56,579 nt of DNA, taken from Mediterraneibacter gnavus (GTDB taxonomy: Bacteria; Pseudomonadota; Alphaproteobacteria; RF32; CAG-239). Shown here in pieces: positions 17,365 to 50,460 of this stretch. Position numbers and translations under genes: made by a program. The stretch's first letter is position 1. Each line of letters opens with the position of its first letter. Below the pieces are notes generated by a model. That model did not search any database. It was given only the letters and a program-made list of their open reading frames with translations, and had not been told where the DNA came from. The DNA lies in assembly GCA_963617265.1 (NCBI GenBank), contig CAVEOB010000004.1, positions 1 through 56,579 on the forward strand, in the 5' to 3' direction.

Positions 17365-18402
17365 TTAACGTCCATTGGCCAACACCAGGATTAAATCGCA
17401 TCTTTGCTTGGAGCATACTCCGCATCTGGCAGCAATAACAGACAAATCAAACGGTTCACAGTGCATATCTTTGGCATAGTTGTCAGGAGCAGACTTTCCG
17501 CAAACAGTCAAAATACCGCCGCTTCGGCCGGTTATGCCCTCATTTAGCACAACAGCCCACGAATCGTCATATTCTGATTGTAAATAAAACATTTCTTTGC
17601 AAGTTTCTACCGCATTTGTATCCGGCAACGTCCAAAATCGTAAAAATAATCGTGACCCAATATTGCTGTTTGGTGGAGTAAAAGAATATATCTGCCAAGA
17701 ATTTCCAAACATATCTTTATTTTGCTCATCTAGCATATTTTGCGGAATAATTCCAATATCTTTATAAACATTCATCATCATTTGGTTATCGGTATTTGTA
17801 TAACTTTTTTCATTCATATACATAATCTTCAGATTTGATGTAAGAGTTACAATGTTTTCTTTCCAGCGATTTAATTTAAACTTCTGCATGGCTTTGGAGT
17901 AACCGGCAAGGCCACCGACACTCAGCACTGCGATTATTGCCAGCACGCCCAGCATTTCTATCATTGAACGGCCGTACTGCACTTGACTGTCAACATCATA
18001 CTTATCGCCACACTCCGCTGGCTGTGGCAGACGAGTATCCATGACTTTGTTGCTATAAGCAACGCTACTTTCTTCTCTCGCCACCAGAGAGAACATGCGT
18101 CCCCTGCACCAGTCATTCTCGGATTTATTCCGAGAATCTTCTCTCAACCAGTACTTATGCAACAATAAAGCTAATTTATTGACTAGGTTAGAGACTTGTT
18201 GCCAGAAGATTCTAGGCACGGGGCCTAGAATGACTGGTGCCAGAGGCGCGGGTTTTGTGCTTGTTGTAATGTTTTTGATACCCCTCACCCGACACTTTGT
18301 GTCGACCTCTCCCGCAAGGGGCGAGGTTACAGGATTACATCGCTTCGCTCGCACTAACGAGGGCGAGGTTTTAAATTTATCTGACTTTGAATTATTTTTC
18401 AT
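17365..18402 (-). CDS. Type IV pilin/pseudopilin-like protein with a 143-codon open 5' extension
   Basis: G-RSMIEMLGVLAIIAVLSVGG, with the Gly codon at 17973..17971, Glu at +5 and a hydrophobic helix, is a prepilin cleavage/methylation-type motif. C-terminal Cys pairs are present. The ATG at 18402 has AGGAAG 5 nt upstream. The mature part (17365..17970) is confident; translation of the extension is not. Confidence 0.6.
   Translation of the reverse strand: MKNNSKSDKFKTSPSLVRAKRCNPVTSPLAGEVDTKCRVRGIKNITTSTKPAPLAPVILGPVPRIFWQQVSNLVNKLALLLHKYWLREDSRNKSENDWCRGRMFSLVAREESSVAYSNKVMDTRLPQPAECGDKYDVDSQVQYGRSMIEMLGVLAIIAVLSVGGLAGYSKAMQKFKLNRWKENIVTLTSNLKIMYMNEKSYTNTDNQMMMNVYKDIGIIPQNMLDEQNKDMFGNSWQIYSFTPPNSNIGSRLFLRFWTLPDTNAVETCKEMFYLQSEYDDSWAVVLNEGITGRSGGILTVCGKSAPDNYAKDMHCEPFDLSVIAARCGVCSKQRCDLILVLANGR
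18107..18239. repeat. Inverted pair of REP-like hairpin modules inside the pilin-like 5' extension
   Basis: caccagtcattct-[cggatttattccg]-agaatcttc (18107-18141) and its inverse gaagattct-[aggcacggggcct]-agaatgactggtg (18205-18239). The arms are identical; the hairpin tops differ but both stay self-complementary. Confidence 0.8.
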
Positions 18403-18592
18403 TTCAACTTCCTTTCGTTTAGAATTACAACAAAAAAGCCGCTTGATGAGAGCGACCGGAAGTTGAGAACTATTGCTTATAAGTATAGTGTAGCATATTA
18501 GCGTATAGCCTATTTTGCTACCTTCCGATCAATAGACCAGAAGGTATTTAACGTCAAATGTTTGACGTATAAGCAAGAGGTTCTCACACCCC
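18403..18592 (-). promoter_or_regulatory. Structured 5' leader, copy A (paralogue of 50224-50440), with terminator
   Basis: Block-wise similarity to copy B, covarying helices, identical CUC/UA internal loop, identical CUCAUCA terminator loop and complementarity to the downstream SD. See findings. Confidence 0.6.
18432..18457 (-). terminator. Intrinsic terminator inside leader A
   Basis: Minus strand: GUCGCU-CUCAUCA-AGCGGC followed by U6, about 30 nt upstream of the ATG at 18402. Confidence 0.7.
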
Positions 18593-18649
18593 AGACAGAC
18601 TATCATCTATCCGTAGTAAGGTTACTAAAATATTCTGCAAAAGTAAAGT

Positions 18650-19147
18650 TTATTTTTGCCGGCACAGTGCTAAAATTTGCTGCAAAGCCTGCTCCGGATT
18701 TTCCAACGGAATTTTATGACCATTCAAAATACAGCTGTTGGATTGCTCGTCATAGTGGCAATACGGCGTGGCGAATTCTCTGCCGTAAATAGCGCTGTCA
18801 TCAATATGCACGCAAATATTCTGCTCTTTGCAATATTCAGCCTTGGCTTTGTTCCATAACTCATCGGCAACATGAAAAGATCCGTCGTCGTAAAATTCCA
18901 CCTGATGCCGCTGTTCGTAATAATCATAAATACACCAAAGTTTGGTATACGGAATTTGATATTGATTTAAATAGGCTAAAATCGTTTCACGCGGCCCGCC
19001 GCTGATAATATAAACTTCCAAGCCGATTTTTAAAGCTTCACGGCAAAATTCCCGAAAAAAATCCGGCCGGGTGTTTATCACCCCATGAAAATCCACGCCG
19101 ATTTTGGATTTAGTATCCGCTTGTGCCGTCGCCAAAGTTTTTTGCAT
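18650..19147 (-). CDS. HAD-superfamily hydrolase-like protein (NT5C-like)
   Basis: 165 aa. GVDFHGVI resembles HAD motif I (DxDGV with the second Asp replaced by His). Overlaps the preceding AsmA-like gene by 38 nt. Confidence 0.45.
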   Translation of the reverse strand: MQKTLATAQADTKSKIGVDFHGVINTRPDFFREFCREALKIGLEVYIISGGPRETILAYLNQYQIPYTKLWCIYDYYEQRHQVEFYDDGSFHVADELWNKAKAEYCKEQNICVHIDDSAIYGREFATPYCHYDEQSNSCILNGHKIPLENPEQALQQILALCRQK

Positions 19148-22100
19148 ACCATTCCTTTAATGAGTTAGGGCTGAGCATAGACAAAGAATTTATATCAACT
19201 TTTGCATCGTCGGCGTTACCGGTAATTTTGTAAGTAGCGGCAAAAATAGTGCCGTCTTTGCTGGCAAGCAGATTGCCGACAACCGGAATTTTGCCCAAAA
19301 AGCGGTTAATACTATACGCCGGAGCAATCACGCCGTTCATTTTAATATTATCAATAGCGCGGTTATAAGTGCCGTTAGTGGTGATACCGACCACATTGCC
19401 CTCTGCCTTAGCCTGTTTCAGGGTCAATATTTTATATTGATACTCAAACGGCGCGTTAAAGTGCGTAAAAGTCAATCCGTCACCTTTCAGCAAATCCAAC
19501 ATGCCGGTAAAGGACGCCACGCTCAAAAGTTTTGCCACCACTGGAGCATTTTGAATACTGAAATCACGCACCTGCATGTGTCCGATAAATTTTTTATCGG
19601 CTTGGCGGCGCGCTTCAATTTTCATAGTTCCGCCCACCATATTGTCATAGAGGCGCAAAACCTTAAATGTGCTGCCGGCGTTGTTACTGTCAATAGAAAG
19701 ATAATGCTCTTTGTTGCCTTTCGGAATATAGTCAAGCTTCAATTTAATAGACTTGTCAATTCCATAGTTGCCGACCATGTGCAGCTCTTCCATACCAATT
19801 CCTTTACGGATTTTAGCACTGCCCGCAAAGTTTTGAATCGGCGTGGTATTATTGGTCCACAAGCTGTTTACGGTCATAAATATATCGGTATTGTTAGCCT
19901 TTTCCAAGCCATCATCATCATTTTCCTGCACCGGCAGCTGTTTGCTGTTTTTCTGATGTTTGCTTTTAACCTGTTCAAAAAACGGTGATAAATCATAGCT
20001 TAGACCGGAAATTTCTACCTTCAGCCACGGATTTGCCGAATCACTCAGGCTGACTTTAGCACGCGCCGAGGTTTTCGGTCCTTTGATTTGGATGATGTCC
20101 ACCGACTTCACTCTGCCGTTTGCATACATAGTTAAATTGCCGGCAATATTAAAACCGGATTTTTGCAGTTTCAGATTTTTAACCGATTTCACTTTATCTT
20201 TCAGCAAAGTAACATCAGCGCTGGCGCTTGCCGTTTGATTCAGCGGCTTAACAAAGCCTAAATAAGCAAAGTCAATCGCCGTGTTTTTCAAATCTGCCTT
20301 GACCTTTACAGAGATTTCATCATTTTGCTGCACAGTTATATCCGCATCAACCAAAGCATAGCCGGAAATATTCGGCGCCTGCAACACCGCCCAATCCAAA
20401 CCCAAAGCTTTTTTAGCCGCGTCATCAAGCTTGAAAGAAATATTGCATTTGCTCTTATATTTTTTCTCGGCAAATTTTTCATTTATGGCAAGCTTTATCG
20501 GTAAAGCGTCATAGTCTGCCTCACCACTCAGGCTCCAGCCGGCAGAGTTAACCAACAGCTGCAAATTCTGTGCCGACAGAGTATGCCCAGGGACAAAGTC
20601 AGAATTAGAAACATCGTGCAAATCTGCCTTGACCTCAACCTTTATGTCATCGCTGTCTAAATCCTGTTTCAGCTCAAAGTCCAATTTCAGCTGCACATCA
20701 ACATTGCCGTGAATTGTTTTAGGGTCAACGCCCATTCCGGCGGCAATTTTCAAAGGCGGATTATTGATTAAATTCAGCGCGTCGGTAATGCTGGAGTTGC
20801 CGATAAGATTTATAGAAATAAAGTTGTCGTCTTTGTGCAAGTCATAAATGTTGACATTGCCGCCGGTTATGATAACGCTGTCGCTCACGCCTTTATCCAC
20901 ATCAATGGAAATATTCTGCATGCTGAATTTGGCGCGTCCGTAAACATTATGCACGTCAGGCATACCGTCCAAATAGTGCAAATCACCGTCTTCAAAATCG
21001 GCAACACCGTCTAAATTCAGCAAGCCGAAAGACTTTGCTTTATTATCATAGCCAAACTTAAACACAAACTTGCCGTTTTTAGCCTGTCCGCCGGTCAAGC
21101 CGTCCTTGCACCATTGCCAAGCCGGTTCGGCTAAATATCTAGGCCAAAAACGAGATAAATATTCTAAAGAAAATTCATCAATTTTTGCGGTAAATTCAGC
21201 GGTCACACCTTCTAGCGAATGTTCCAGATAATAGTTTTCCAAGCCCTTGGCGGCAAAGCTGATTTGCGCAGTCTGCCCGCCCATTTTGAAATCGGCGTTT
21301 TTAATATTCAGCTCGTCAAAACCGCCAGTAAGCTCTCCGGCTAGCACCATTTCATCTATTTCATAATTGTACTTTTCATCATTATCAAAAGCCACATAGC
21401 CGTGACCGCCGTCCAGCTCAAAATTGATTTTCTTTACAGCGTCGCTCAAATATGCAGCAGCATTTTCCGGATGCTGTAAAATATCCGAAACATCTATTTC
21501 CGTATCAATTTTGCCGTTAACCGGCACATTTATGCTAAACTGCAGCGGAGTTTCATTTTCTGCCGGCTGCGTATCCAAACTGCTCATAATATCCGATAAA
21601 ATCAAATCAGAAAAATAAACTTCCAAATCCAACTTATCGCTGGAAGCGTGATATTCGCTTTCAAAACCAACCGACGCAACTTTATCGTTTAAGTTAACCA
21701 AAGCATCGGCGTTAAGCTCCAAATTAACCAAATTGCGGCTGAACTCAAAGTTCAAATCCGAAAGCATCCATTTGCGCCCCAAGTCAACTTCATGAAATTC
21801 CACTTCGGCGCCTTTGATATTGATGTTATTGACATAGCTTTCCGGATAAATTTTTTCCGGTGAATTATAATTGTTCAGAAAATCCTTGAACTTATCGACA
21901 TAAAATGCCAATTTCTTTTTGTTTGCCTCGTCGATATGCTCTTTTTCCACCCCGTAATCGGCAAAAATATAGACTGTCGGATTATCCAAGCTGACATCGC
22001 TTGGGGCAATAATACCCTTCAGCAAAGCACGCAGACTGAATGATAAATAAAGCTTTGGCGCACTGATGGCAAAAGTTCCGTCTTTCTTTTTAAGGTTAAT

Positions 22101-22346
22101 ATCTTCAGCGGTAATGCGCAGCGGCTGCACCGAACGCACCAGCTCCAAATTAACTTTGCCCAAACCAACGCTGTAATCGCTTTCATCATAGTTCAAAGCC
22201 TGAATAATATACGGTTTTAAATATGGAACGGAAATCGGACCTTTATATAATGTCCAAAAAAATAAAAGCACGACCACTAACATTCCAACCATAAAAAAAT
22301 CTATGGCTTTGCGAAAAAAATATGATTGCGGCGACAGTTTTTTCAT
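19110..22346 (-). CDS. AsmA/YhdP-family (DUF3971-type) envelope protein
   Basis: 1078 aa with a single N-terminal TM helix and a long beta-rich body. C-terminal GTIFAATYKITGNADDAKVDINSLSMLSPNSLKEW resembles the AsmA-like C-terminal region of YhdP-type proteins. Confidence 0.7.
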   Translation of the reverse strand: MKKLSPQSYFFRKAIDFFMVGMLVVVLLFFWTLYKGPISVPYLKPYIIQALNYDESDYSVGLGKVNLELVRSVQPLRITAEDINLKKKDGTFAISAPKLYLSFSLRALLKGIIAPSDVSLDNPTVYIFADYGVEKEHIDEANKKKLAFYVDKFKDFLNNYNSPEKIYPESYVNNINIKGAEVEFHEVDLGRKWMLSDLNFEFSRNLVNLELNADALVNLNDKVASVGFESEYHASSDKLDLEVYFSDLILSDIMSSLDTQPAENETPLQFSINVPVNGKIDTEIDVSDILQHPENAAAYLSDAVKKINFELDGGHGYVAFDNDEKYNYEIDEMVLAGELTGGFDELNIKNADFKMGGQTAQISFAAKGLENYYLEHSLEGVTAEFTAKIDEFSLEYLSRFWPRYLAEPAWQWCKDGLTGGQAKNGKFVFKFGYDNKAKSFGLLNLDGVADFEDGDLHYLDGMPDVHNVYGRAKFSMQNISIDVDKGVSDSVIITGGNVNIYDLHKDDNFISINLIGNSSITDALNLINNPPLKIAAGMGVDPKTIHGNVDVQLKLDFELKQDLDSDDIKVEVKADLHDVSNSDFVPGHTLSAQNLQLLVNSAGWSLSGEADYDALPIKLAINEKFAEKKYKSKCNISFKLDDAAKKALGLDWAVLQAPNISGYALVDADITVQQNDEISVKVKADLKNTAIDFAYLGFVKPLNQTASASADVTLLKDKVKSVKNLKLQKSGFNIAGNLTMYANGRVKSVDIIQIKGPKTSARAKVSLSDSANPWLKVEISGLSYDLSPFFEQVKSKHQKNSKQLPVQENDDDGLEKANNTDIFMTVNSLWTNNTTPIQNFAGSAKIRKGIGMEELHMVGNYGIDKSIKLKLDYIPKGNKEHYLSIDSNNAGSTFKVLRLYDNMVGGTMKIEARRQADKKFIGHMQVRDFSIQNAPVVAKLLSVASFTGMLDLLKGDGLTFTHFNAPFEYQYKILTLKQAKAEGNVVGITTNGTYNRAIDNIKMNGVIAPAYSINRFLGKIPVVGNLLASKDGTIFAATYKITGNADDAKVDINSLSMLSPNSLKEWYAKNFGDGTSGY

Positions 22347-31412: not shown

Positions 31413-32326
31413 ATGAAAAATAAGCAAACAAAAGGTCTCTCTCTCTCTCTGCGAATCCTATACGTCTGATTAGAGGCGCTTTTTCTGCCATTCAGCACGT
31501 TTTTGCAGGGTTTAGTAAAAAAATATACAGTTTTAAACACCCCTCTCTCTCAACGTCATGCTTGAGCGTGAGCGATAGCGAACTGTCTCGAGAATCCAGA
31601 AATAAAGAGTCCATATTCTTTAAGCGGATATACCATACTGGATCCTCGGCGAATGAGCTGACGCTCAAAGCCAATGATGACCATAAGAGTGTGCTGCAAA
31701 GTGGTCGTTCTATGATTGAAATGCTCGGAGTGTTGGCGATTATCGGTGTTTTATCTGTCGGCGGGATTGCAGGATTCACTAAAGCAATGCGCATGTATCG
31801 CTCGAATATTCAAAAAGAACTGCTGGTTCAGATTTTTGCCAATGCCATAAATTTGCGGTCAGAACTCGCCGCAATGAAAAATAATGTTTCAGGTAAAATA
31901 ACCTATATTTTTGATGTGTTAGGATTGGTTCCTGACGGTATAACCTATAAAAATGGCTGGCTCTATGATAAAGATGGCAATAATTTAGATGTTTATTATG
32001 GAATGGTTCGTTGGAATAATACTGATGGCAGCACTTCCAGCCGTTTAGAATATATGGTTCGGTTAGGATTACAGCATAATTCAGCAATGCTTTCTCCCAG
32101 CGCCGAAGATTTTTGTGAAAACGCTATATTTGTGGCTCAGCAAAATATCAAAGATATTGAAAAAGTTGTAATGTTTCAATACGATAAAGATGCTTTAAAT
32201 CACAATAAAGCCACAACCTTTACTCAAAATAGACTTAGATCAATAACCATAGCAGAAGCGCAAAGCCTTTGTCGGTGGTGCAACATAGATGAAGCTTGCA
32301 CTTTGCAGCTATACATTTATCCTTAA
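31413..32326 (+). CDS. Type IV pilin/pseudopilin-like paralogue; start codon currently out of frame (putative phase-OFF)
   Basis: G-RSMIEMLGVLAIIGVLSVGG with the Gly codon at 31703. The pilin frame is open from 31424 to 32326 but has no nearby ATG. A promoter, SD (GAGGAAAG) and ATG at 31413 sit in another frame that stops at TGA 31467. The two frames are separated by a (CT)7 tract. Confidence 0.6.
31436..31450 (+). repeat. Dinucleotide simple-sequence repeat T(CT)7 inside the 5' coding region
   Basis: tctctctctctctct lies directly after codon 8 (GGT) of the ATG-initiated frame. Confidence 0.95.
31619..31673 (+). repeat. 55-bp repeat, copy 1 (inside the pilin-like leader)
   Basis: tttaagcggatataccatactggatcctcggcgaatgagctgacgctcaaagcca; 48/55 identical to 44827-44881, with the last 33 nt at 32/33. 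Confidence 0.85.
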
Positions 32327-44776: not shown

Positions 44777-44826
44777 GATATAATTAGGATTAGTTGTTTT
44801 GATTTTTGTTTTGCCTTACCTCCTTT

Positions 44827-44881
44827 TTTAAGCGGCTATATTGTTCTAGATCCTCGGCGAATGAGCTAACGCTCAAAGCCA
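44827..44881 (+). repeat. 55-bp repeat, copy 2 (3' flank of the Cys-rich gene)
   Basis: tttaagcggctatattgttctagatcctcggcgaatgagctaacgctcaaagcca, in the same orientation as copy 1. Confidence 0.85.
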
Positions 44882-44897
44882 TGGGGGACAAATTATA

Positions 44898-46532
44898 TTA
44901 GTCATACCAATCGTAATAATAAGTATTTCCATCATCGTTAGGCTTTGCTTGACCGTTCCAACTTGGTTTTTGGATACTAAAATTATACATAGTACAATTA
45001 CAAGCTCCTGGTCCACCACATGCACCTGAATATTCTTTCCAGCATGAACCTACACCACTGCTACTTCCACTAGAAATAGTCGCAGAACCTTGGAATTGAT
45101 AACTTCCATTATCTTCATAACCCTCACCCAAGTGGTCATCAATCCTCCAACAATCTACATCTCCTTCGTAAAAAACAGTGATATCCTCTTTTACTGGTTG
45201 ATCAGATATTAACTTCAGACAATGACCAGTTGTGCCATCAACAATTCCATCGACATACTCCCAATCAATCGATATATGGACTTCTTTATTAGTTGAAGAC
45301 GGAGATTCACTGCCGCATTGCTCGCCGCCTTTTAACGGAATTTGCAAAGTAGCTTCACTGTTGACAACGGTATAGCCGGCTGCCTTAGCTTTTTCAATCA
45401 TGCAGCTTTTACGCTCAGCGTCGTCCGCCGCATCTTTTGCACATTCGGTATCAGCGACAAAATATTCCGCATTCGGCATAAAGAAGTCTTCACCTGTGCT
45501 TTCATCTTTCAGCAGGTGGATAGCAACATCTGCATCGCTTACAAAAACACTATCCTCCTTGTCAAAATCGAAATCATGATATTTTAATTCATAGGTTTCA
45601 ACCCCTGCTACATTGCAAGCGTCATTGTCATATTTTCCGGTGTCGGCATTCTTGCGTCCGCAGTCATCACCGGCTTTTGTGCAGGTATACGGATTAGTGC
45701 TATCAACTAAGTTTTCGGACAGACCCCACAAAAGTTCTTTTCCAATACTTTCAAAATTATTCCACAATGTTTTAGGAATAACTGTTCCACTGATATTGTT
45801 GTTAACGTTGCTGCCAGTACCGTTACCATAGAACATATATTTTATCTTACCTGTAACATCGCTTGGACAAGTCCCGCCGTTGCAGGTATATTTAAATTTA
45901 AAGGTTATAGTGGTAGGTTCGCTATTCGTTTCACAGATTCCGCACTTGTTGCTGTATCCGTCAACTTTATCGCCAAGCACAAACGTTTCACCGGTTTTAC
46001 AGTTTGCAGCTGTTTGCAAACCGCCCATTTGCGAGCAGGCTAATTTTTCACAAGTACCGCATACGCCATCACTACCGGTTTCGCCATTGTCTTTGAATCC
46101 TAAATATTCTTTGCCGCAGCCAGTTGTTTTTGATATATATCCCTTATCTTTGCAGGTTGGATCAGCCACCAACTTATAGCAATTGCCGCAAACCAAACAT
46201 TTAGAATTAACTTGAGCGTTTTTGGCTGCAGTTTTGCATTCACTTATACTGCCATAGATGCCGTTGCTATGGTTTAGATCTGTGTCGCATTTAATATACC
46301 AGCATAATTTGTTGTCGTTTTGATAGGCTTTTTCACAAGTTTTATCTTTTATTTTAGCTTCTGCTGCTTCTTGGGAGTTATATTGGCAACAGGTTGTGCA
46401 AACAGGAGGCTCAGAAGGTTTGCCCATTCCGCAATCTTTTGAGTCCGGTAAAAAACACACCCTTGCAAAAACCGGAGTCGCAGCCATGCATAAAACCCCG
46501 ATAAAACACAATTTATTCAATAATTTAAACAT
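44898..46532 (-). CDS. Large Cys-rich secreted protein of unknown function
   Basis: 544 aa with signal peptide MFKLLNKLCFIGVLCMAATPVFA. Many Cys residues occur in short spacings (CTTCCQ, CLVCGNC, CGTCEKLAC, CGICE, CGGPGACNC). Strong SD GGGAGGA. Confidence 0.7.
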   Translation of the reverse strand: MFKLLNKLCFIGVLCMAATPVFARVCFLPDSKDCGMGKPSEPPVCTTCCQYNSQEAAEAKIKDKTCEKAYQNDNKLCWYIKCDTDLNHSNGIYGSISECKTAAKNAQVNSKCLVCGNCYKLVADPTCKDKGYISKTTGCGKEYLGFKDNGETGSDGVCGTCEKLACSQMGGLQTAANCKTGETFVLGDKVDGYSNKCGICETNSEPTTITFKFKYTCNGGTCPSDVTGKIKYMFYGNGTGSNVNNNISGTVIPKTLWNNFESIGKELLWGLSENLVDSTNPYTCTKAGDDCGRKNADTGKYDNDACNVAGVETYELKYHDFDFDKEDSVFVSDADVAIHLLKDESTGEDFFMPNAEYFVADTECAKDAADDAERKSCMIEKAKAAGYTVVNSEATLQIPLKGGEQCGSESPSSTNKEVHISIDWEYVDGIVDGTTGHCLKLISDQPVKEDITVFYEGDVDCWRIDDHLGEGYEDNGSYQFQGSATISSGSSSGVGSCWKEYSGACGGPGACNCTMYNFSIQKPSWNGQAKPNDDGNTYYYDWYD

Positions 46533-46550
46533 AATACGATCCTCCCTGCT

Positions 46551-46735
46551 GTGTAAAAAAAACGACCGTTATTTTTACACACTAAAAAGGCTATTTTTGT
46601 AATATTACGAAATATTTCAGAATTATGAAGAAAATTGAGCAATCTTAAATAGTTATTGCAAAAAAATCGTAAAATATTGTATACTAAAAGTATTAGAGGT
46701 AAAGTGTGTAAAAATAACGGTCGTTTTTTTTACAC
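46551..46735. promoter_or_regulatory. Candidate invertible promoter element (inverton): 32-bp perfect inverted repeats flanking 121 bp
   Basis: IR-L at 46551-46582 (gtgtaaaaaaaacgaccgttatttttacacac) is the exact reverse complement of IR-R at 46704-46735. Confidence 0.5.
46656..46685 (+). promoter_or_regulatory. Sigma-70-like promoter inside the IR-flanked segment, pointing away from the Cys-rich gene
   Basis: TTGCAA (46656-46661), 18-nt spacer, TATACT (46680-46685). It currently faces the 3' end of a convergent gene. Confidence 0.45.
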
Positions 46736-46759
46736 ACTTTTTTCACAAAAATGAAGCTA

Positions 46760-48325
46760 TTATTTAGATAGCGAATACACCGCTTTTAAGCCGTCTGCCG
46801 CAGCCGAGGTTATACCGCCGGCATAGCCGGCGCCCTCGCCGCAAGGATACAGCCCTTTGACATTGCTTTGCATGGTTTCATCACGCACTATCCTCACTGG
46901 CGAAGAACTGCGGGTTTCAACTCCGGTCAAAACCGCGTCATAGCAATCAAATCCGTGCAATTTTTTAGCCATTTCCACAATACCCAGCCGCAAAGAATCC
47001 GCTATTTCTTCCGGCAGAACCTGTTTAAATCCGCCTAAAGCCACCCCCGGAAGATAGGACGGACGCACCTCGCCTAACTTTTGTGAAACTTTGCGCCGCA
47101 AGAAATCTCCGACCAAAACCGCCGGCGCGCGATATGATTTGTCACCGGCAATAAAAGCGTTTTCCTCTAATTTACGCTGAAAATACATACCAGCCAGCGG
47201 ATTGCTGCTACCAAAATCTTTTTCGGAAACACCAACCAGCAAAGCCGAATTAGCATTCTCAGCCGCGCGGGCAAACTCGCTCATACCGTTTGTCACGACA
47301 CGTCCTTTTTCGGAAGCAGCCGCCACAACCACACCGCCCGGACACATGCAAAACGTATATACCGAGCGTCCGTTGGGCAAATGCACCGCCATTTTATAGT
47401 CAGCCGCGCCCAAATACGGGCTTTCCGCCGCTTTGCCGTACTGCGCTTTATTTATCAGGGTTTGTTTGTGTTCAATTCTAGCGCCGACTGAAAACGATTT
47501 TTGCTCCATGTGCACGCCTGAATTATACAGCATCTCAAAAGTATCGCGCGCGCTGTGACCGATAGCCAAAAACAGCTTGTTTGCTGGCAATTCATAAGTT
47601 TCTTTTTCGTTCGTAATTTTAATTGCAGCAAGTTTATCGTTTTTGATAACAAGTCCGGTTAACTGACTGTTAAAACGATATTCTCCGCCCAAAGACAGTA
47701 TTTTTTGCCGAATATTTTTAACAACCAAACGCAGTTTATCCGTACCAATATGCGGCTTTGCCAAATAAAGAATTTCTTGAGGAGCTCCGGCGGCGGCAAA
47801 TTCTTGCAAAACTTTAGCGGTGAACTTGTCTTTTTTGATGCCTGTCATCAGCTTGCCGTCCGAAAAAGTACCAGCACCGCCCTCTCCGAACTGCACGTTG
47901 GAATTGGCTTTAAGCTCGCCGCCCTGCCAAAACGCCGCCACATCTTTTTGACGCTGCTCCACTGGCGCGCCGCGCTCCAAAATAATCGGGTTCAAACCGG
48001 CTTCAGCCAAAGCAAGACCAGCAAACATACCGGCTGGACCGCTGCCAACCACAATTGGACGCACGCCGTCAGCCTTGAGGTTAAACGTTAGTTTTTCCAC
48101 TTCCGGCAGCTGCTCAATATCTTTGTCACGCACTGTTGAAACCGCATTGCAATCCACGCTGTATACAAAATGCACATTGTTTTTGCTGCGCGCGTCAACC
48201 GATTTTTTGGATACGGCGAAATTTTGGAGTTCTGTTTCTTTAACCCCCAATTTTTGCGCGGCTTTTTGTTTGAGCTGCTGTTCGCTTGCGTTCAGCGGCA
48301 TAGAAATATTGTTAATGCGTAACAT
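46760..48325 (-). CDS. FAD-dependent oxidoreductase (COG2509-type NAD(FAD)-utilising dehydrogenase)
   Basis: 521 aa with dinucleotide-binding fingerprint VVGSGPAGMFAGLALAEAG and conserved C-terminal GEGAGYAGGI. Confidence 0.8.
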   Translation of the reverse strand: MLRINNISMPLNASEQQLKQKAAQKLGVKETELQNFAVSKKSVDARSKNNVHFVYSVDCNAVSTVRDKDIEQLPEVEKLTFNLKADGVRPIVVGSGPAGMFAGLALAEAGLNPIILERGAPVEQRQKDVAAFWQGGELKANSNVQFGEGGAGTFSDGKLMTGIKKDKFTAKVLQEFAAAGAPQEILYLAKPHIGTDKLRLVVKNIRQKILSLGGEYRFNSQLTGLVIKNDKLAAIKITNEKETYELPANKLFLAIGHSARDTFEMLYNSGVHMEQKSFSVGARIEHKQTLINKAQYGKAAESPYLGAADYKMAVHLPNGRSVYTFCMCPGGVVVAAASEKGRVVTNGMSEFARAAENANSALLVGVSEKDFGSSNPLAGMYFQRKLEENAFIAGDKSYRAPAVLVGDFLRRKVSQKLGEVRPSYLPGVALGGFKQVLPEEIADSLRLGIVEMAKKLHGFDCYDAVLTGVETRSSSPVRIVRDETMQSNVKGLYPCGEGAGYAGGITSAAADGLKAVYSLSK

Positions 48326-49203: not shown

Positions 49204-50223
49204 CTAAATTTTACCATATATTTTGCGGTATATTTTCAGCCAAAATGCTAAACGGGAAAAATCACCGCTCAAAAACATTTTACATAAGAATCGGTTAAAC
49301 AAGCTTAGTTCTGTCGGGAAAAACACCTTTTGCGCCGCTAAATCCAAGCAGATTTGCCGATATTTATGCCAATAGCTTTGATAATCAGCGTTTTTGAAAT
49401 ACGGATACGAACAGCATTGCCTAAAAATTATTCTCGAAAAATTTTTCTTCATCAGTTCATAACTTTTTATGTCTTCCATTGCCGCAAAATGCGTCATTAT
49501 TTTTTGAGCCAGCAAAATATGGTCGTTAATTTCTCGCTCCGAAAACTTTTGATGTGTCAAACTGCTTTCTGTCTGCCGGTAGAACATAAGCTTTTCTTTT
49601 ACGCATACTGATTTTTTTACTCGTTCAAACACTAAAAATGAGTAATAATAATCTTCAGCCATTTGTTTAAAATCCGCCGAAAAGTACAAGTCTTTTAAAA
49701 TTTCCCGCTTATACAATTTTCCCCAAACTGCTATTTGCAGCTTGGGCTTTTGTTTTTTAATATAGTGTAAAAATAAATTACTGCCGTCCTGCAGCGAACA
49801 GCTATTGCTTTTTATTATCAGGTTTTTACGCTTTTTCTCTTTTAAGCACCAAGCCATATCGCTATTTGTTTTTTCCAGCGCAGTTGTCATATATTCCATA
49901 AACTGGCAATGCAGCATATCGTCCGCATCTAAAAAAGCGATATAATCACCTTGGGCTTTTTGCAAAGCCGCGTTACGCACTGCCGAAACACCGGAATTTT
50001 TTTGATTTATAAGCACAAAACGACTGTCTTTTGCCGCATACTCCTGCAAAATTTGCCAAGAACTGTCTGCCGAGCCATCATTGACGCAGATAGCTTCCCA
50101 ATAAGGATATGTCTGCGCCTGCAAGCTGTCTAAACACAAGGCTAAATATTTTTCTGCATTATAAACGGGAACAATCACCGAAACCAGTTTGCCGGAGCTG
50201 TTTTCTTTGGATTTTATTTTCAT
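49204..50223 (-). CDS. Family 2 glycosyltransferase
   Basis: VSVIVPVYNAEKYLALCLDSLQAQTY and a DADD motif (DxD). The ATG at 50223 (MKIKSK) is preceded by GGAG, and the ATG at 50235 lies inside that SD. Confidence 0.85.
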   Translation of the reverse strand: MKIKSKENSSGKLVSVIVPVYNAEKYLALCLDSLQAQTYPYWEAICVNDGSADSSWQILQEYAAKDSRFVLINQKNSGVSAVRNAALQKAQGDYIAFLDADDMLHCQFMEYMTTALEKTNSDMAWCLKEKKRKNLIIKSNSCSLQDGSNLFLHYIKKQKPKLQIAVWGKLYKREILKDLYFSADFKQMAEDYYYSFLVFERVKKSVCVKEKLMFYRQTESSLTHQKFSEREINDHILLAQKIMTHFAAMEDIKSYELMKKNFSRIIFRQCCSYPYFKNADYQSYWHKYRQICLDLAAQKVFFPTELSLFNRFLCKMFLSGDFSRLAFWLKIYRKIYGKI

Positions 50224-50230
50224 CACTTTC

Positions 50231-50255
50231 TCCATTAGAGGGTTCTAAACCCCAC
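50231..50255. repeat. 25-bp direct repeat, RBS-proximal copy
   Basis: tccattagagggttctaaaccccac; 24/25 identical to 50411-50435. Overlaps the SD (GGAG) of the glycosyltransferase gene. Confidence 0.9.
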
Positions 50256-50283
50256 AAAAAAAGCCGCCTTGATGAGAGGCAGC
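50256..50283 (-). terminator. Intrinsic terminator inside leader B
   Basis: Minus strand: GCUGCCU-CUCAUCA-AGGCGGC followed by U7, about 30 nt upstream of the glycosyltransferase start. Confidence 0.7.
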
Positions 50284-50410
50284 AGGAAGTTAGAACCTAT
50301 AATGGAAATAGTGTAGTGTATTTGGCGTAAGAGCAAGCTCCTACGCCTTATTAACCACCTTCCTGCTCTGACGCAACAAGGTAGTTTTTCTCATCTGGAA
50401 AAACCAGCTA

Positions 50411-50435
50411 TCCATTAGAGGGTTCTAAACCTCAC
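50411..50435. repeat. 25-bp direct repeat, leader-5' copy
   Basis: tccattagagggttctaaacctcac. Forms the 5' strand of the outer helix of leader B. Confidence 0.9.
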
Positions 50436-50460
50436 ACCGGTAATCAGCCGATGCAATTTA

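Follow-up and report, generated by a model that had tools for sequence, protein, structure and literature searches.

An open, palindrome-rich extension ahead of the prepilin motif in a pilin gene of gut Alphaproteobacteria

Mosaics of the repetitive extragenic palindrome (REP) type, such as the bacterial interspersed mosaic elements (BIMEs) of Escherichia coli and the rhizobial (RIME) and neisserial (NIME) intergenic mosaic elements, are composed of short imperfect palindromes in variable order and orientation, and are located outside of genes. In the pilC gene of Neisseria, a poly-G tract in the signal-peptide coding region accounts for phase variation of a pilus gene. Rickettsia palindromic elements (RPEs) are palindromic sequences of ~100-170 nt with an intrinsically open frame, which reside in frame inside genes and add a peptide to the product (PMC10969869). 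The leader of a class III (prepilin) signal peptide stays in the cytoplasm and is cleaved off at the cytoplasmic face of the membrane; described prepilin leaders are 6-26 amino acids (aa) long, or ~15-30 aa in type IVb pilins (PMC4471445). Here we describe a pilin gene on the reverse strand of a 56,579-nt stretch of DNA, further on called the window (assembly GCA_963617265.1, contig CAVEOB010000004.1, named "Mediterraneibacter gnavus" and assigned in GTDB to Alphaproteobacteria; RF32; CAG-239), in which 143 open codons filled with palindromes precede the prepilin motif. This long open palindromic extension is a real feature beyond chance. With a probability of about 0.66, it is translated as a prepilin leader of extreme length that is then disposed of; in principle such a leader resembles RPEs, and its modules would be passed around among genes of secreted proteins.

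Like RPEs, the extension holds a palindromic module of 163 nt with 61-nt arms (M3) which lies in frame and encodes a conserved peptide, and the frame of the block that contains it is open in an intergenic copy as well. Unlike RPEs, which are scattered in many unrelated Rickettsia genes, these modules occur almost exclusively after the start codon and before the signal-peptide cleavage site of pilins and of one other secreted-protein family, build mosaic arrays of up to ~200 codons which would be removed from the mature protein, and have uncultured gut and rumen Alphaproteobacteria as hosts. The RPE likeness proposed in the initial annotation of this locus holds for the frame-keeping palindromes, and fails with regard to scattering through unrelated genes; in principle, the comparison is apt. 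Short imperfect palindromes are combined as in REP/BIME mosaics, and one hairpin family of the arrays is widespread, but the mosaic studied here is inside an open reading frame (ORF) and keeps the frame, in contrast to its extragenic counterparts. Gly at position -1, Glu at +5, ~20 hydrophobic residues and a PilS-like fold are shared with class III and type IVb prepilins, whereas the leader is 143 aa long, and reaches up to ~200 aa in relatives. As in pilC, a simple repeat a few codons after the ATG sets the frame in the second pilin gene of the window and in relatives; unlike in pilC, it is a dinucleotide tract followed by 90-200 leader codons before the cleavage site. The RNA upstream of the start codon resembles riboswitch and attenuator leaders in its covarying, mutually exclusive helices, in a terminator hairpin with a U-run and in a segment complementary to the Shine-Dalgarno (SD) sequence, while it differs from the known ones in matching no Rfam family. 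Searches of the literature on long prepilin leaders or in-frame palindromes in pilins yielded no precedent; the gene would join RPE-like in-frame palindromes with a prepilin leader.

The pilin gene, its probable start codon and its frame

Coordinates are collected in Table 1; loci and proteins of related genomes are referred to by L and P numbers. From residue 144 onward the product reads G/RSMIEMLGVLAIIAVLSVGGLAGYSKAM. In this class III signal, Gly occupies position -1 and Glu position +5, and a hydrophobic helix is present (G144/RSMIE(+5)MLGVLAIIAVLSVGGLAGY); the signal positions are invariant in 22 aligned homologues. The Gly144 codon is at 17973-17971, followed by RSMIEML. Homologues number 4806, nearly all from uncultured gut and rumen Alphaproteobacteria, with an invariant G-x-S-M-x-E-M at the N-terminus and with conserved Cys residues 268, 327, 330 and 335. 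Modelled with AlphaFold (pLDDT 82.6), the mature part has a helix over residues 3-52, then a mixed helix/strand domain. The best match of the model in PDB is moderate, to the type IVb pilin PilS of Salmonella typhi (3fhu_A; E 4.7e-3, probability 1.00, TM 0.49/0.62). Profile matches stay below their cut-offs: Pfam PilS_N with E 1.2e-3 and 19.3 bits (cut-off 22), Pfam N_methyl with 13.7 bits (cut-off 21.2), and NCBIfam PRK10574 with E 2.7e-4, far under its cut-off. Judging from the modelled fold and the signal, the gene product is a type IVb-like pilin. The extension itself gave no match in Pfam or NCBIfam. Pilin paralogues are numerous in the genomes, and the window holds a second one at 31703; among the window ORFs scanned, no genes for prepilin peptidase or pilus assembly were identified.

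Table 1. Coordinates of the pilin gene, its leader modules and related features in the window
Feature	Position	Strand	Remarks
Conserved structured leader RNA	18618-18403	-	~215 nt, ends at SD; riboswitch-/attenuator-like
Shine-Dalgarno AGGAAG	18413-18408	-	5-nt spacer to ATG 18402-18400; from sequence reading
Pilin ORF	18402-17365	-	345 aa, ATG 18402 to stop
Leader-peptide coding region	18402-17974	-	143 codons, ATG to codon before Gly144
Leader part common to orthologue	18402-18329	-	reads MKNNSKSDKFKTSPSLVRAKRCNPV; small palindrome ~18360-18332 inside
Extra block absent from orthologue	18328-17992	-	~335 nt; M2, M3, linker, M5
M2	18327-18305 and 18304-18290	-	hairpins, the latter CGACAC-AAA-GTGTCG; from inverted-repeat listing
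M3, composite imperfect palindrome	18254-18092	-	163 nt; 61-nt arms, 72% complementary
M5	18045-17992	-	MDTRLPQPAECGDKYD
Gly144 (-1), mature type IVb-like pilin and stop	17365-17973	-	RSMIEMLGVLAIIAVLSVGG..., Glu +5, four conserved C-terminal Cys
Second pilin paralogue	31413-32326	+	promoter-like TTGACT..TATAGA, SD, ATG 31413 (MKNKQTKG)

The initial annotation described a far-upstream AGGAAG-N5-ATG at 18402 and 143 open codons between this ATG and G/RSMIEML, and all of these features are present. The SD of ATG 18402 aligns with those of the paralogues and of the orthologue, and the pair is the sole SD-supported in-frame start detected in the open region of 185 codons. An internal in-frame ATG (18041-18039) had been reported as devoid of SD, which is borne out, and the same applies to every in-frame internal start near the prepilin motif. 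A promoter scan found no promoter-like site on the reverse strand inside the extension. The orthologue shares the SD and ATG, and the 5' RNA ends at this point, so that ATG 18402 is very probable as the real start. Read in this way, the sequence very probably specifies a precursor with a leader of 143 residues instead of the usual 6-30.

The orthologue (P0002, loci L001-L004; downstream genes nagB and slyX are syntenic with the window) is 91% identical to window positions 18628-18390, a 240-nt 5' region with SD and ATG included, and 82% identical over the 3-kb segment from 17973 on, comprised of the pilin and downstream genes; the mature-coding parts are 88% identical. Between the two conserved regions there are 417 nt in the window vs 102 nt in the orthologue, a difference of 315 nt, or 105 codons. 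The orthologue has a leader of 38 aa, its only SD-supported start is the same ATG, and pairwise alignment is collinear over 18402-18329, with one 12-nt (4-codon) indel. In addition, the first 12 nt of the window ORF, ATGAAAAATAAT, are identical to the start of a short-leader paralogue (L007:9765-9994, MKNNQIG/HSMIEML). The comparison with related pilin-like genes that the initial annotation had proposed covered about 20 distinct pilin-linked copies of the 5' RNA. In these, the next start codon is in frame with the prepilin motif and open up to it, and leaders are mostly of 6-11 codons, increasing to 23, 38, 38 and 143 where palindromic modules are inserted. Canonical paralogues carry AGGAG or AAGGA 6-8 nt before the ATG; in long-leader relatives, the SD-ATG is a long way from the motif on its upstream side, and a closer one is usually absent. 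The extra block is missing from the two most similar proteins (91% and 77% identity), and the exact 345-aa product was not on record in the protein look-up.

Within the extension, stop codons number 0 in the frame of the gene vs 8 and 15 in the other two frames, and a frame 0 free of stops was obtained in just 0.015% of mononucleotide shuffles. The RNA of the extension folds at -154.8 kcal/mol, whereas shuffled sequences reach -122.2 +/- 5.6 kcal/mol (z = -5.8), and none of 100 such sequences folded as well. The leader has a net charge of +10 and no membrane-spanning stretch; charge and hydropathy were considered as discriminators of frame and dropped, since all frames are basic. To place these numbers into the context of the family, 121 complete prepilin motifs from GTDB genomes were surveyed regardless of gene calls. 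An in-frame open stretch of at least 60 codons precedes 25 of the 121 motifs, and 7 have at least 100 codons, whereas the other two frames contain 0 and 3 stretches of at least 60 codons. About one fifth of the family genes in metagenome-assembled genomes (MAGs) of gut and rumen Alphaproteobacteria thus have 60-200 in-frame leader codons, built from the same modules. In 30 long leaders, frame 0 has no stops, vs 5.6 and 8.1 stops per 100 codons in the other frames. The pattern recurs in relatives, and pilins of this kind are probably made with leaders of ~5-20 times the usual length.

Frame keeping was also assessed in a spacing test not conditioned on open frames, in which the 900-nt stretches ahead of different motifs were compared for similar segments located at different distances from the motif. 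The difference in distance is a multiple of 3 in 155 of 225 cases (69%) within 150 nt and in 44 of 66 (67%) at 150-300 nt, vs 14 of 43 (33%), the chance level, beyond 500 nt. Hairpins with the ATTCT stem, found 13 times in 1.3 Mb of related genomes, are inside an open frame in 12 cases, at many distances from the motif. All eight forward copies are in phase 0 (VILGxxPRI) and all four reverse copies in phase 2 (DSRxKxEND). Frame agreement of modules within open regions (119/127) was set aside, because conditioning on open frames selects for the open phase.

Palindromic modules and their distribution

The repeats and hairpins listed in the initial annotation all exist in the extension. Two copies of AACCTCGCCC are present (18370-18361 and 18328-18319), as well as the CGACAC-AAA-GTGTCG hairpin, and the direct repeat flanks just the small first palindrome. 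For the stem described as GNRA-capped, the GCAA loop exists on the forward strand, antisense to the gene; the loop in the mRNA is UUGC, and whichever strand is read, a single mismatch interrupts the stem. Both ATTCT hairpins of 9 bp are perfect (18231-18209 and 18137-18115), but they are ends of one composite palindrome, M3. In frame, M3 reads APVILGPVPRIFWQQVSNLVNKLALLLHKYWLREDSRNKSENDW, a peptide which recurs in many homologues, and it ends in terminal inverted repeats, CCAGTCATTCTnGG... and ...CCnAGAATGACTGG, a trait resembling miniature inverted-repeat transposable elements. The ATTCT-hairpin stem appears in four variants (ATTCTAGGC, ATTCTCGGA, ATTCTCGGG and ATTCTTGGG), each of them perfectly complementary, indicating that the palindrome itself is maintained and the encoded amino acids are not. 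Palindromic symmetry also explains the open frame on the opposite strand, noted previously and existing as a forward-strand ORF at 18095-18466: over the 30 long leaders, stops occur at 1.6 per 100 codons in one antisense frame vs 4.7-8.1 in other out-of-frame readings. Reading and alignment of the edges of the block and of M3 gave no clear target-site duplication (a transposase was not searched for), and no sign of single-element transposition was seen at the arrays. There was no evidence for DNA inversion between inverted hairpins, for which nothing was sought beyond palindromic hits.

BLAST of the extension disclosed no second copy in the window. In related genomes, the occurrence of modules elsewhere, on which the initial annotation had made its proposal dependent, could be confirmed: the block matches L210 (83% over 341 nt), L209 (81% over 372 nt), L085/L086 (86% over 257 nt) and L089 (80% over 235 nt), and all block alignments stop at the same right edge, 17992. 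L085/L086 is a different pilin locus, with the match located within its leader, and mature coding DNA of the window gene and of L085 is only 61% identical. Because the blocks are far more alike than the mature parts, the modules either pass from gene to gene or are conserved much more strongly than the pilins behind them. L084-L089 represent one orthologous locus in six assemblies, with near-identical mature pilins and the same downstream genes. Nevertheless, their leaders are six differing mosaics of 126-216 codons, all open in frame, with two types of start cassette.

In the 1.3 Mb surveyed, a sample of the surroundings of pilin genes, 12 of 13 BLAST hits and all 13 hairpins lie up to 650 nt upstream of a pilin motif, a zone that makes 6% of the bases. 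Regions similar to any long leader are pilin-upstream in 96 of 110 cases. A bare hairpin of 23-26 nt, GTCATTCTCGG-N7-CCGAGAAT, belongs to a widespread REP-like family, with at least 131 hits in very diverse metagenome contigs (GC content 31-72%). The flanks that were read suggest mostly intergenic sites, often in composites of hairpin, spacer and inverted hairpin. Pilin-specific targeting of this hairpin was rejected, as just 3 of the 131 metagenome hits adjoin a GRSMIEML pilin.

A protein search with the extension alone retrieved 17 proteins: four fusions to pilins, four fusions to Cys-rich secreted proteins, and the rest stand-alone or truncated arrays. The Cys-rich fusions are found at L212:313-909, L213 and L214 (P0130), and also in P0125, P0131 and P0133. 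In these fusions, the M3 array follows a strong SD/ATG in frame and leads into the ordinary Sec signal peptide, MSILAFLCLFATAAEA, of a small Cys-rich protein, and the only SD precedes the far-upstream ATG. Fusions of this type indicate that the arrays are not restricted to pilins, and yet are located again upstream of a cleavable signal. An array-free relative of the Cys-rich family, a protein of 544 aa, is encoded in the window at 44898-46532.

One copy of the block, at L209:2487-2992 (P0121), lies between two convergent genes, with no pilin. The same frame is open there over 163 codons, and the three frames have 1, 12 and 14 stops. A stand-alone ORF of 239 codons (P0123, L215:2501-3220), present in three assemblies, is comprised of a (CT)9 start cassette and two arrays, and ends in a short Cys-containing tail, ..SSCKACAYYSKGGTCSLLLFF. 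It adjoins a T2SSE-type ATPase gene and a gene of 198 aa, equal in length to P0130 (the sequences were not compared).

Structured leader RNA and start cassettes

An nhmmer search for the 5' RNA that precedes ATG 18402 gave 30 copies in related loci, almost every one of them immediately ahead of a pilin start. In an alignment of 25 sequences (A3), pairing holds in 98.6% of pair cells and compensatory changes are seen in 18 of 26 pairs; among 500 shuffles, none was as good, and slid controls collapse. The fold of the RNA has z = -6.6. A long-range helix of GCNGGAAGG with CCTTCCNGC competes with a local hairpin which covaries too, so the two are mutually exclusive. The terminator scan located a hairpin of terminator type (18457-18437) with a U-run behind it, and bases complementary to the SD region (18417-18404) make up an anti-SD segment at 18466-18453. 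The CTTCC segment of the competing helices is at once the 5' foot of the terminator hairpin and complementary to the SD. While the structures are based on covariation, the switching function is our inference, according to which this RNA would be a riboswitch- or attenuator-like expression platform feeding SD/ATG 18402. Rfam, searched with gathering thresholds over the whole window and with E up to 5 on 17900-18800, produced just tRNA and chance-level hits. Having no Rfam match, the leader RNA is counted as a candidate new riboswitch or attenuator. Another copy in the window (50236-50459, reverse strand) precedes a family-2 glycosyltransferase gene (49204-50235), and 28 further copies are in L001-L089.

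In the second pilin gene of the window, (CT)7 at 31437-31450 puts ATG 31413 out of frame with an open leader of 93 codons and the pilin. By its sequence this looks like classical phase variation in the OFF state. A conserved cassette, SD-ATG-MKNKxxKG-(CT)n, heads many arrays. Among 13 distinct (CT)n copies, n = 7 occurs six times and n = 8 three times, while n = 5, 6, 9 and 15 are each found once. Long ORFs result only from n = 6, 9 and 15, and the copy with n = 6 (L087) is fused to the pilin. At the single locus represented by L085-L089, n is 5, 8, 6, 7 and 7, so that tract length differs between strains and sets the frame. A phase-variable tract after the ATG makes sense only if translation proceeds through the array into the pilin, which supports translation of the arrays. 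The gene at 18402 is itself without a (CT)n tract.

A 32-nt palindrome, TGTGTAAAAATAACGGTCGTTTTTTTTACACA, is found in the window at 46550-46581 and 46705-46736, just before the SD/ATG of the 544-aa Cys-rich protein. In many long-leader pilins and in P0130 (L212:~270-300), it likewise stands at the head of the start cassette MLKSMNFLRGKSRG. In its sequence the palindrome looks like an operator-like site, and its location suggests that the MLKSMNFLRGKSRG cassette may have been borrowed from the Cys-rich protein family.

Interpretation of the probable long leader

Transcription of the pilin gene would begin ~215 nt upstream of ATG 18402, and the transcript would form alternative helices in the leader RNA, an antiterminator on one side and the terminator together with the SD-sequestering pairing on the other. 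Ribosomes would initiate at SD/ATG 18402 and read through the frame-keeping palindromic array. By analogy with class III signal peptides, the hydrophobic helix after Gly144 may be expected to enter the membrane, with the basic leader remaining in the cytoplasm until prepilin peptidase cleaves after Gly144 and the whole extension is discarded. A leader that is cytoplasmic and cut at the cytoplasmic face meets no topological obstacle to being long. Since it is discarded, the stretch from start to cleavage site can tolerate in-frame junk: an insertion there leaves the mature protein unchanged, which would explain why arrays are tolerated before both class III and class I signals. In this clade, the stretch would have been filled by modules whose own frame is open, as is the case for RPEs. 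The arrays are mosaic, strain-variable and more alike across genes than the mature parts, and recombination or gene conversion between 5' ends of secreted-protein genes is thus the most likely mover, which could swap start and regulatory cassettes at the same time.

Several points weigh against a translated, disposable leader. Its 143 codons are far outside the described 6-26 or ~15-30 aa, and the short leader typical for prepilins is not found here. Because the intergenic block in L209 keeps its frame open too, openness is in part a trait which the gene took over with the element. Only two junctions had to be in frame, which would happen by chance in roughly 1/9 of cases, or in roughly 1/3 if the left junction arose by homologous recombination. 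For this allele no record was found, and the block is missing from the two nearest proteins, which means that it may be recent and not yet tested by selection. Gap runs between leaders are multiples of 3 in 25 of 139 cases, vs 98 of 665 in the non-coding 5' RNA used as a control, although this test is uninformative, probably because of paired 1-nt gaps in alignments of 70-80% identity. A disposable leader does not explain why modules are rare in the intergenic DNA of this clade.

It is possible, albeit doubtful, that the arrays are more than tolerated junk, and serve as a recombination substrate of an expression-site shuffling system. Recombination in the discarded part could then move 5' cassettes among genes of pilins and secreted proteins with mature proteins unchanged. 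Three types of cassette were seen: the riboswitch-like RNA, the 32-nt palindromic operator-like site and the (CT)n phase-variable start. If true, shuffling would be a new way for gut Alphaproteobacteria to vary which surface proteins are expressed, and their control.

In a rival reading, the block, with its own open frame, silenced the gene when it landed by insertion or recombination between the start codon and the prepilin motif, in frame by chance, with a product that is not made or not processed. In that case the window gene would have been lost only lately, or would serve as a silent reservoir. The open intergenic copy in L209, closest orthologues without the block, an allele not on record, an unprecedented leader length and very stable hairpins inside the ORF, which could impede translation, are all compatible with this. 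We consider it unlikely, given that about one fifth of the family has the same architecture in many species, that one locus is open in six assemblies despite different arrays, and that SD-ATG or (CT)n start cassettes are kept upstream, while nothing is damaged in the regulatory 5' RNA, SD or mature coding part of the window gene. In another reading, the extension is an untranslated structured leader, with an unrecognised internal start near the motif, for example GTG at 17982-17980 (Val of ..QVQYG) or ATG 18041. Short leaders of 5-11 aa are the family norm, and in-frame ATG or GTG codons do exist 41, 23 and 3 codons before Gly144. However, no candidate has an SD-like sequence, in contrast to canonical paralogues, no promoter-like site is present on the reverse strand in the extension, the conserved regulatory RNA and SD are both situated at 18402, and an internal start leaves the stop-free frame and the multiple-of-3 spacing unexplained. 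This makes it improbable.

The arrays might also encode a functional cytoplasmic domain, for regulation, chaperoning or targeting, with palindromy as a secondary feature. Many proteins conserve peptides such as APVILGLVPRI..NLVNKLALLLHKCW, and there are stand-alone arrays whose ORF has a start cassette of its own (P0123, L215). On the other hand, stem variants alter both arms together, changing amino acids and keeping the pairing; one module used in both orientations gives unrelated peptides (VILGxxPRI and DSRxKxEND, also KILGT..PRMTGG); array make-up varies freely between strains with the same mature pilin; and Pfam and NCBIfam give no match. A domain function is therefore hardly to be expected. 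The last alternative, an assembly artefact in which a repeat from another locus was threaded into the gene, is the least credible of all. Related contigs do often break a few hundred nt upstream of pilins (L084, L086-L088), as repeats would cause. However, a single locus is the orthologue of both flanks of the window gene, just ~7 nt at the right junction are common to the window and the orthologue, which is not enough for a switch of k-mer path, the 56.6-kb window has no second copy, and similar arrays are present in many independent assemblies made with different assemblers.

If the long leaders are translated, the range of class III leaders (6-30 residues) widens by up to an order of magnitude, and prepilin peptidase substrates can bear cytoplasmic extensions of 100-200 residues. 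Next to RPEs, they would then be the second example, of independent origin, in which palindromic repeats have become adapted to life inside reading frames, tolerated by the host here because it cuts them off. Mosaic arrays, (CT)n tracts and the covarying RNA together point to an unexplored layer of variation and regulation of surface structures in abundant, uncultured bacteria of the human and ruminant gut. In terms of annotation, pilin ORFs in these MAGs that seem "too long" are probably not artefacts of gene callers.

Some further observations concern copies of modules and neighbouring genes. A tandem arrangement was observed in L118:34-458, on a metagenome contig (GC content 42%) without a pilin motif: three 200-nt units, each with a terminator-like hairpin and then a GTCATTCTCGGACTTGTTCCGAGAAT hairpin. 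A leader module of the second window pilin, FFKRIYHTGSSANELTLKA, recurs on the forward strand at 44824-44881, 86% identical to the region 31605-31662, in ordinary intergenic DNA between convergent genes. Synteny with the orthologue breaks just upstream of the pilin 5' RNA (window 18650-22346 vs upstream regions of L001-L003). The orthologue has there a gene for a flavin adenine dinucleotide-dependent protein, the window relative of which lies 28 kb away (46760-48325), whereas the window contains a HAD-like gene and a YhdP/AsmA-like gene instead. Upstream neighbours vary among L084-L089 too.

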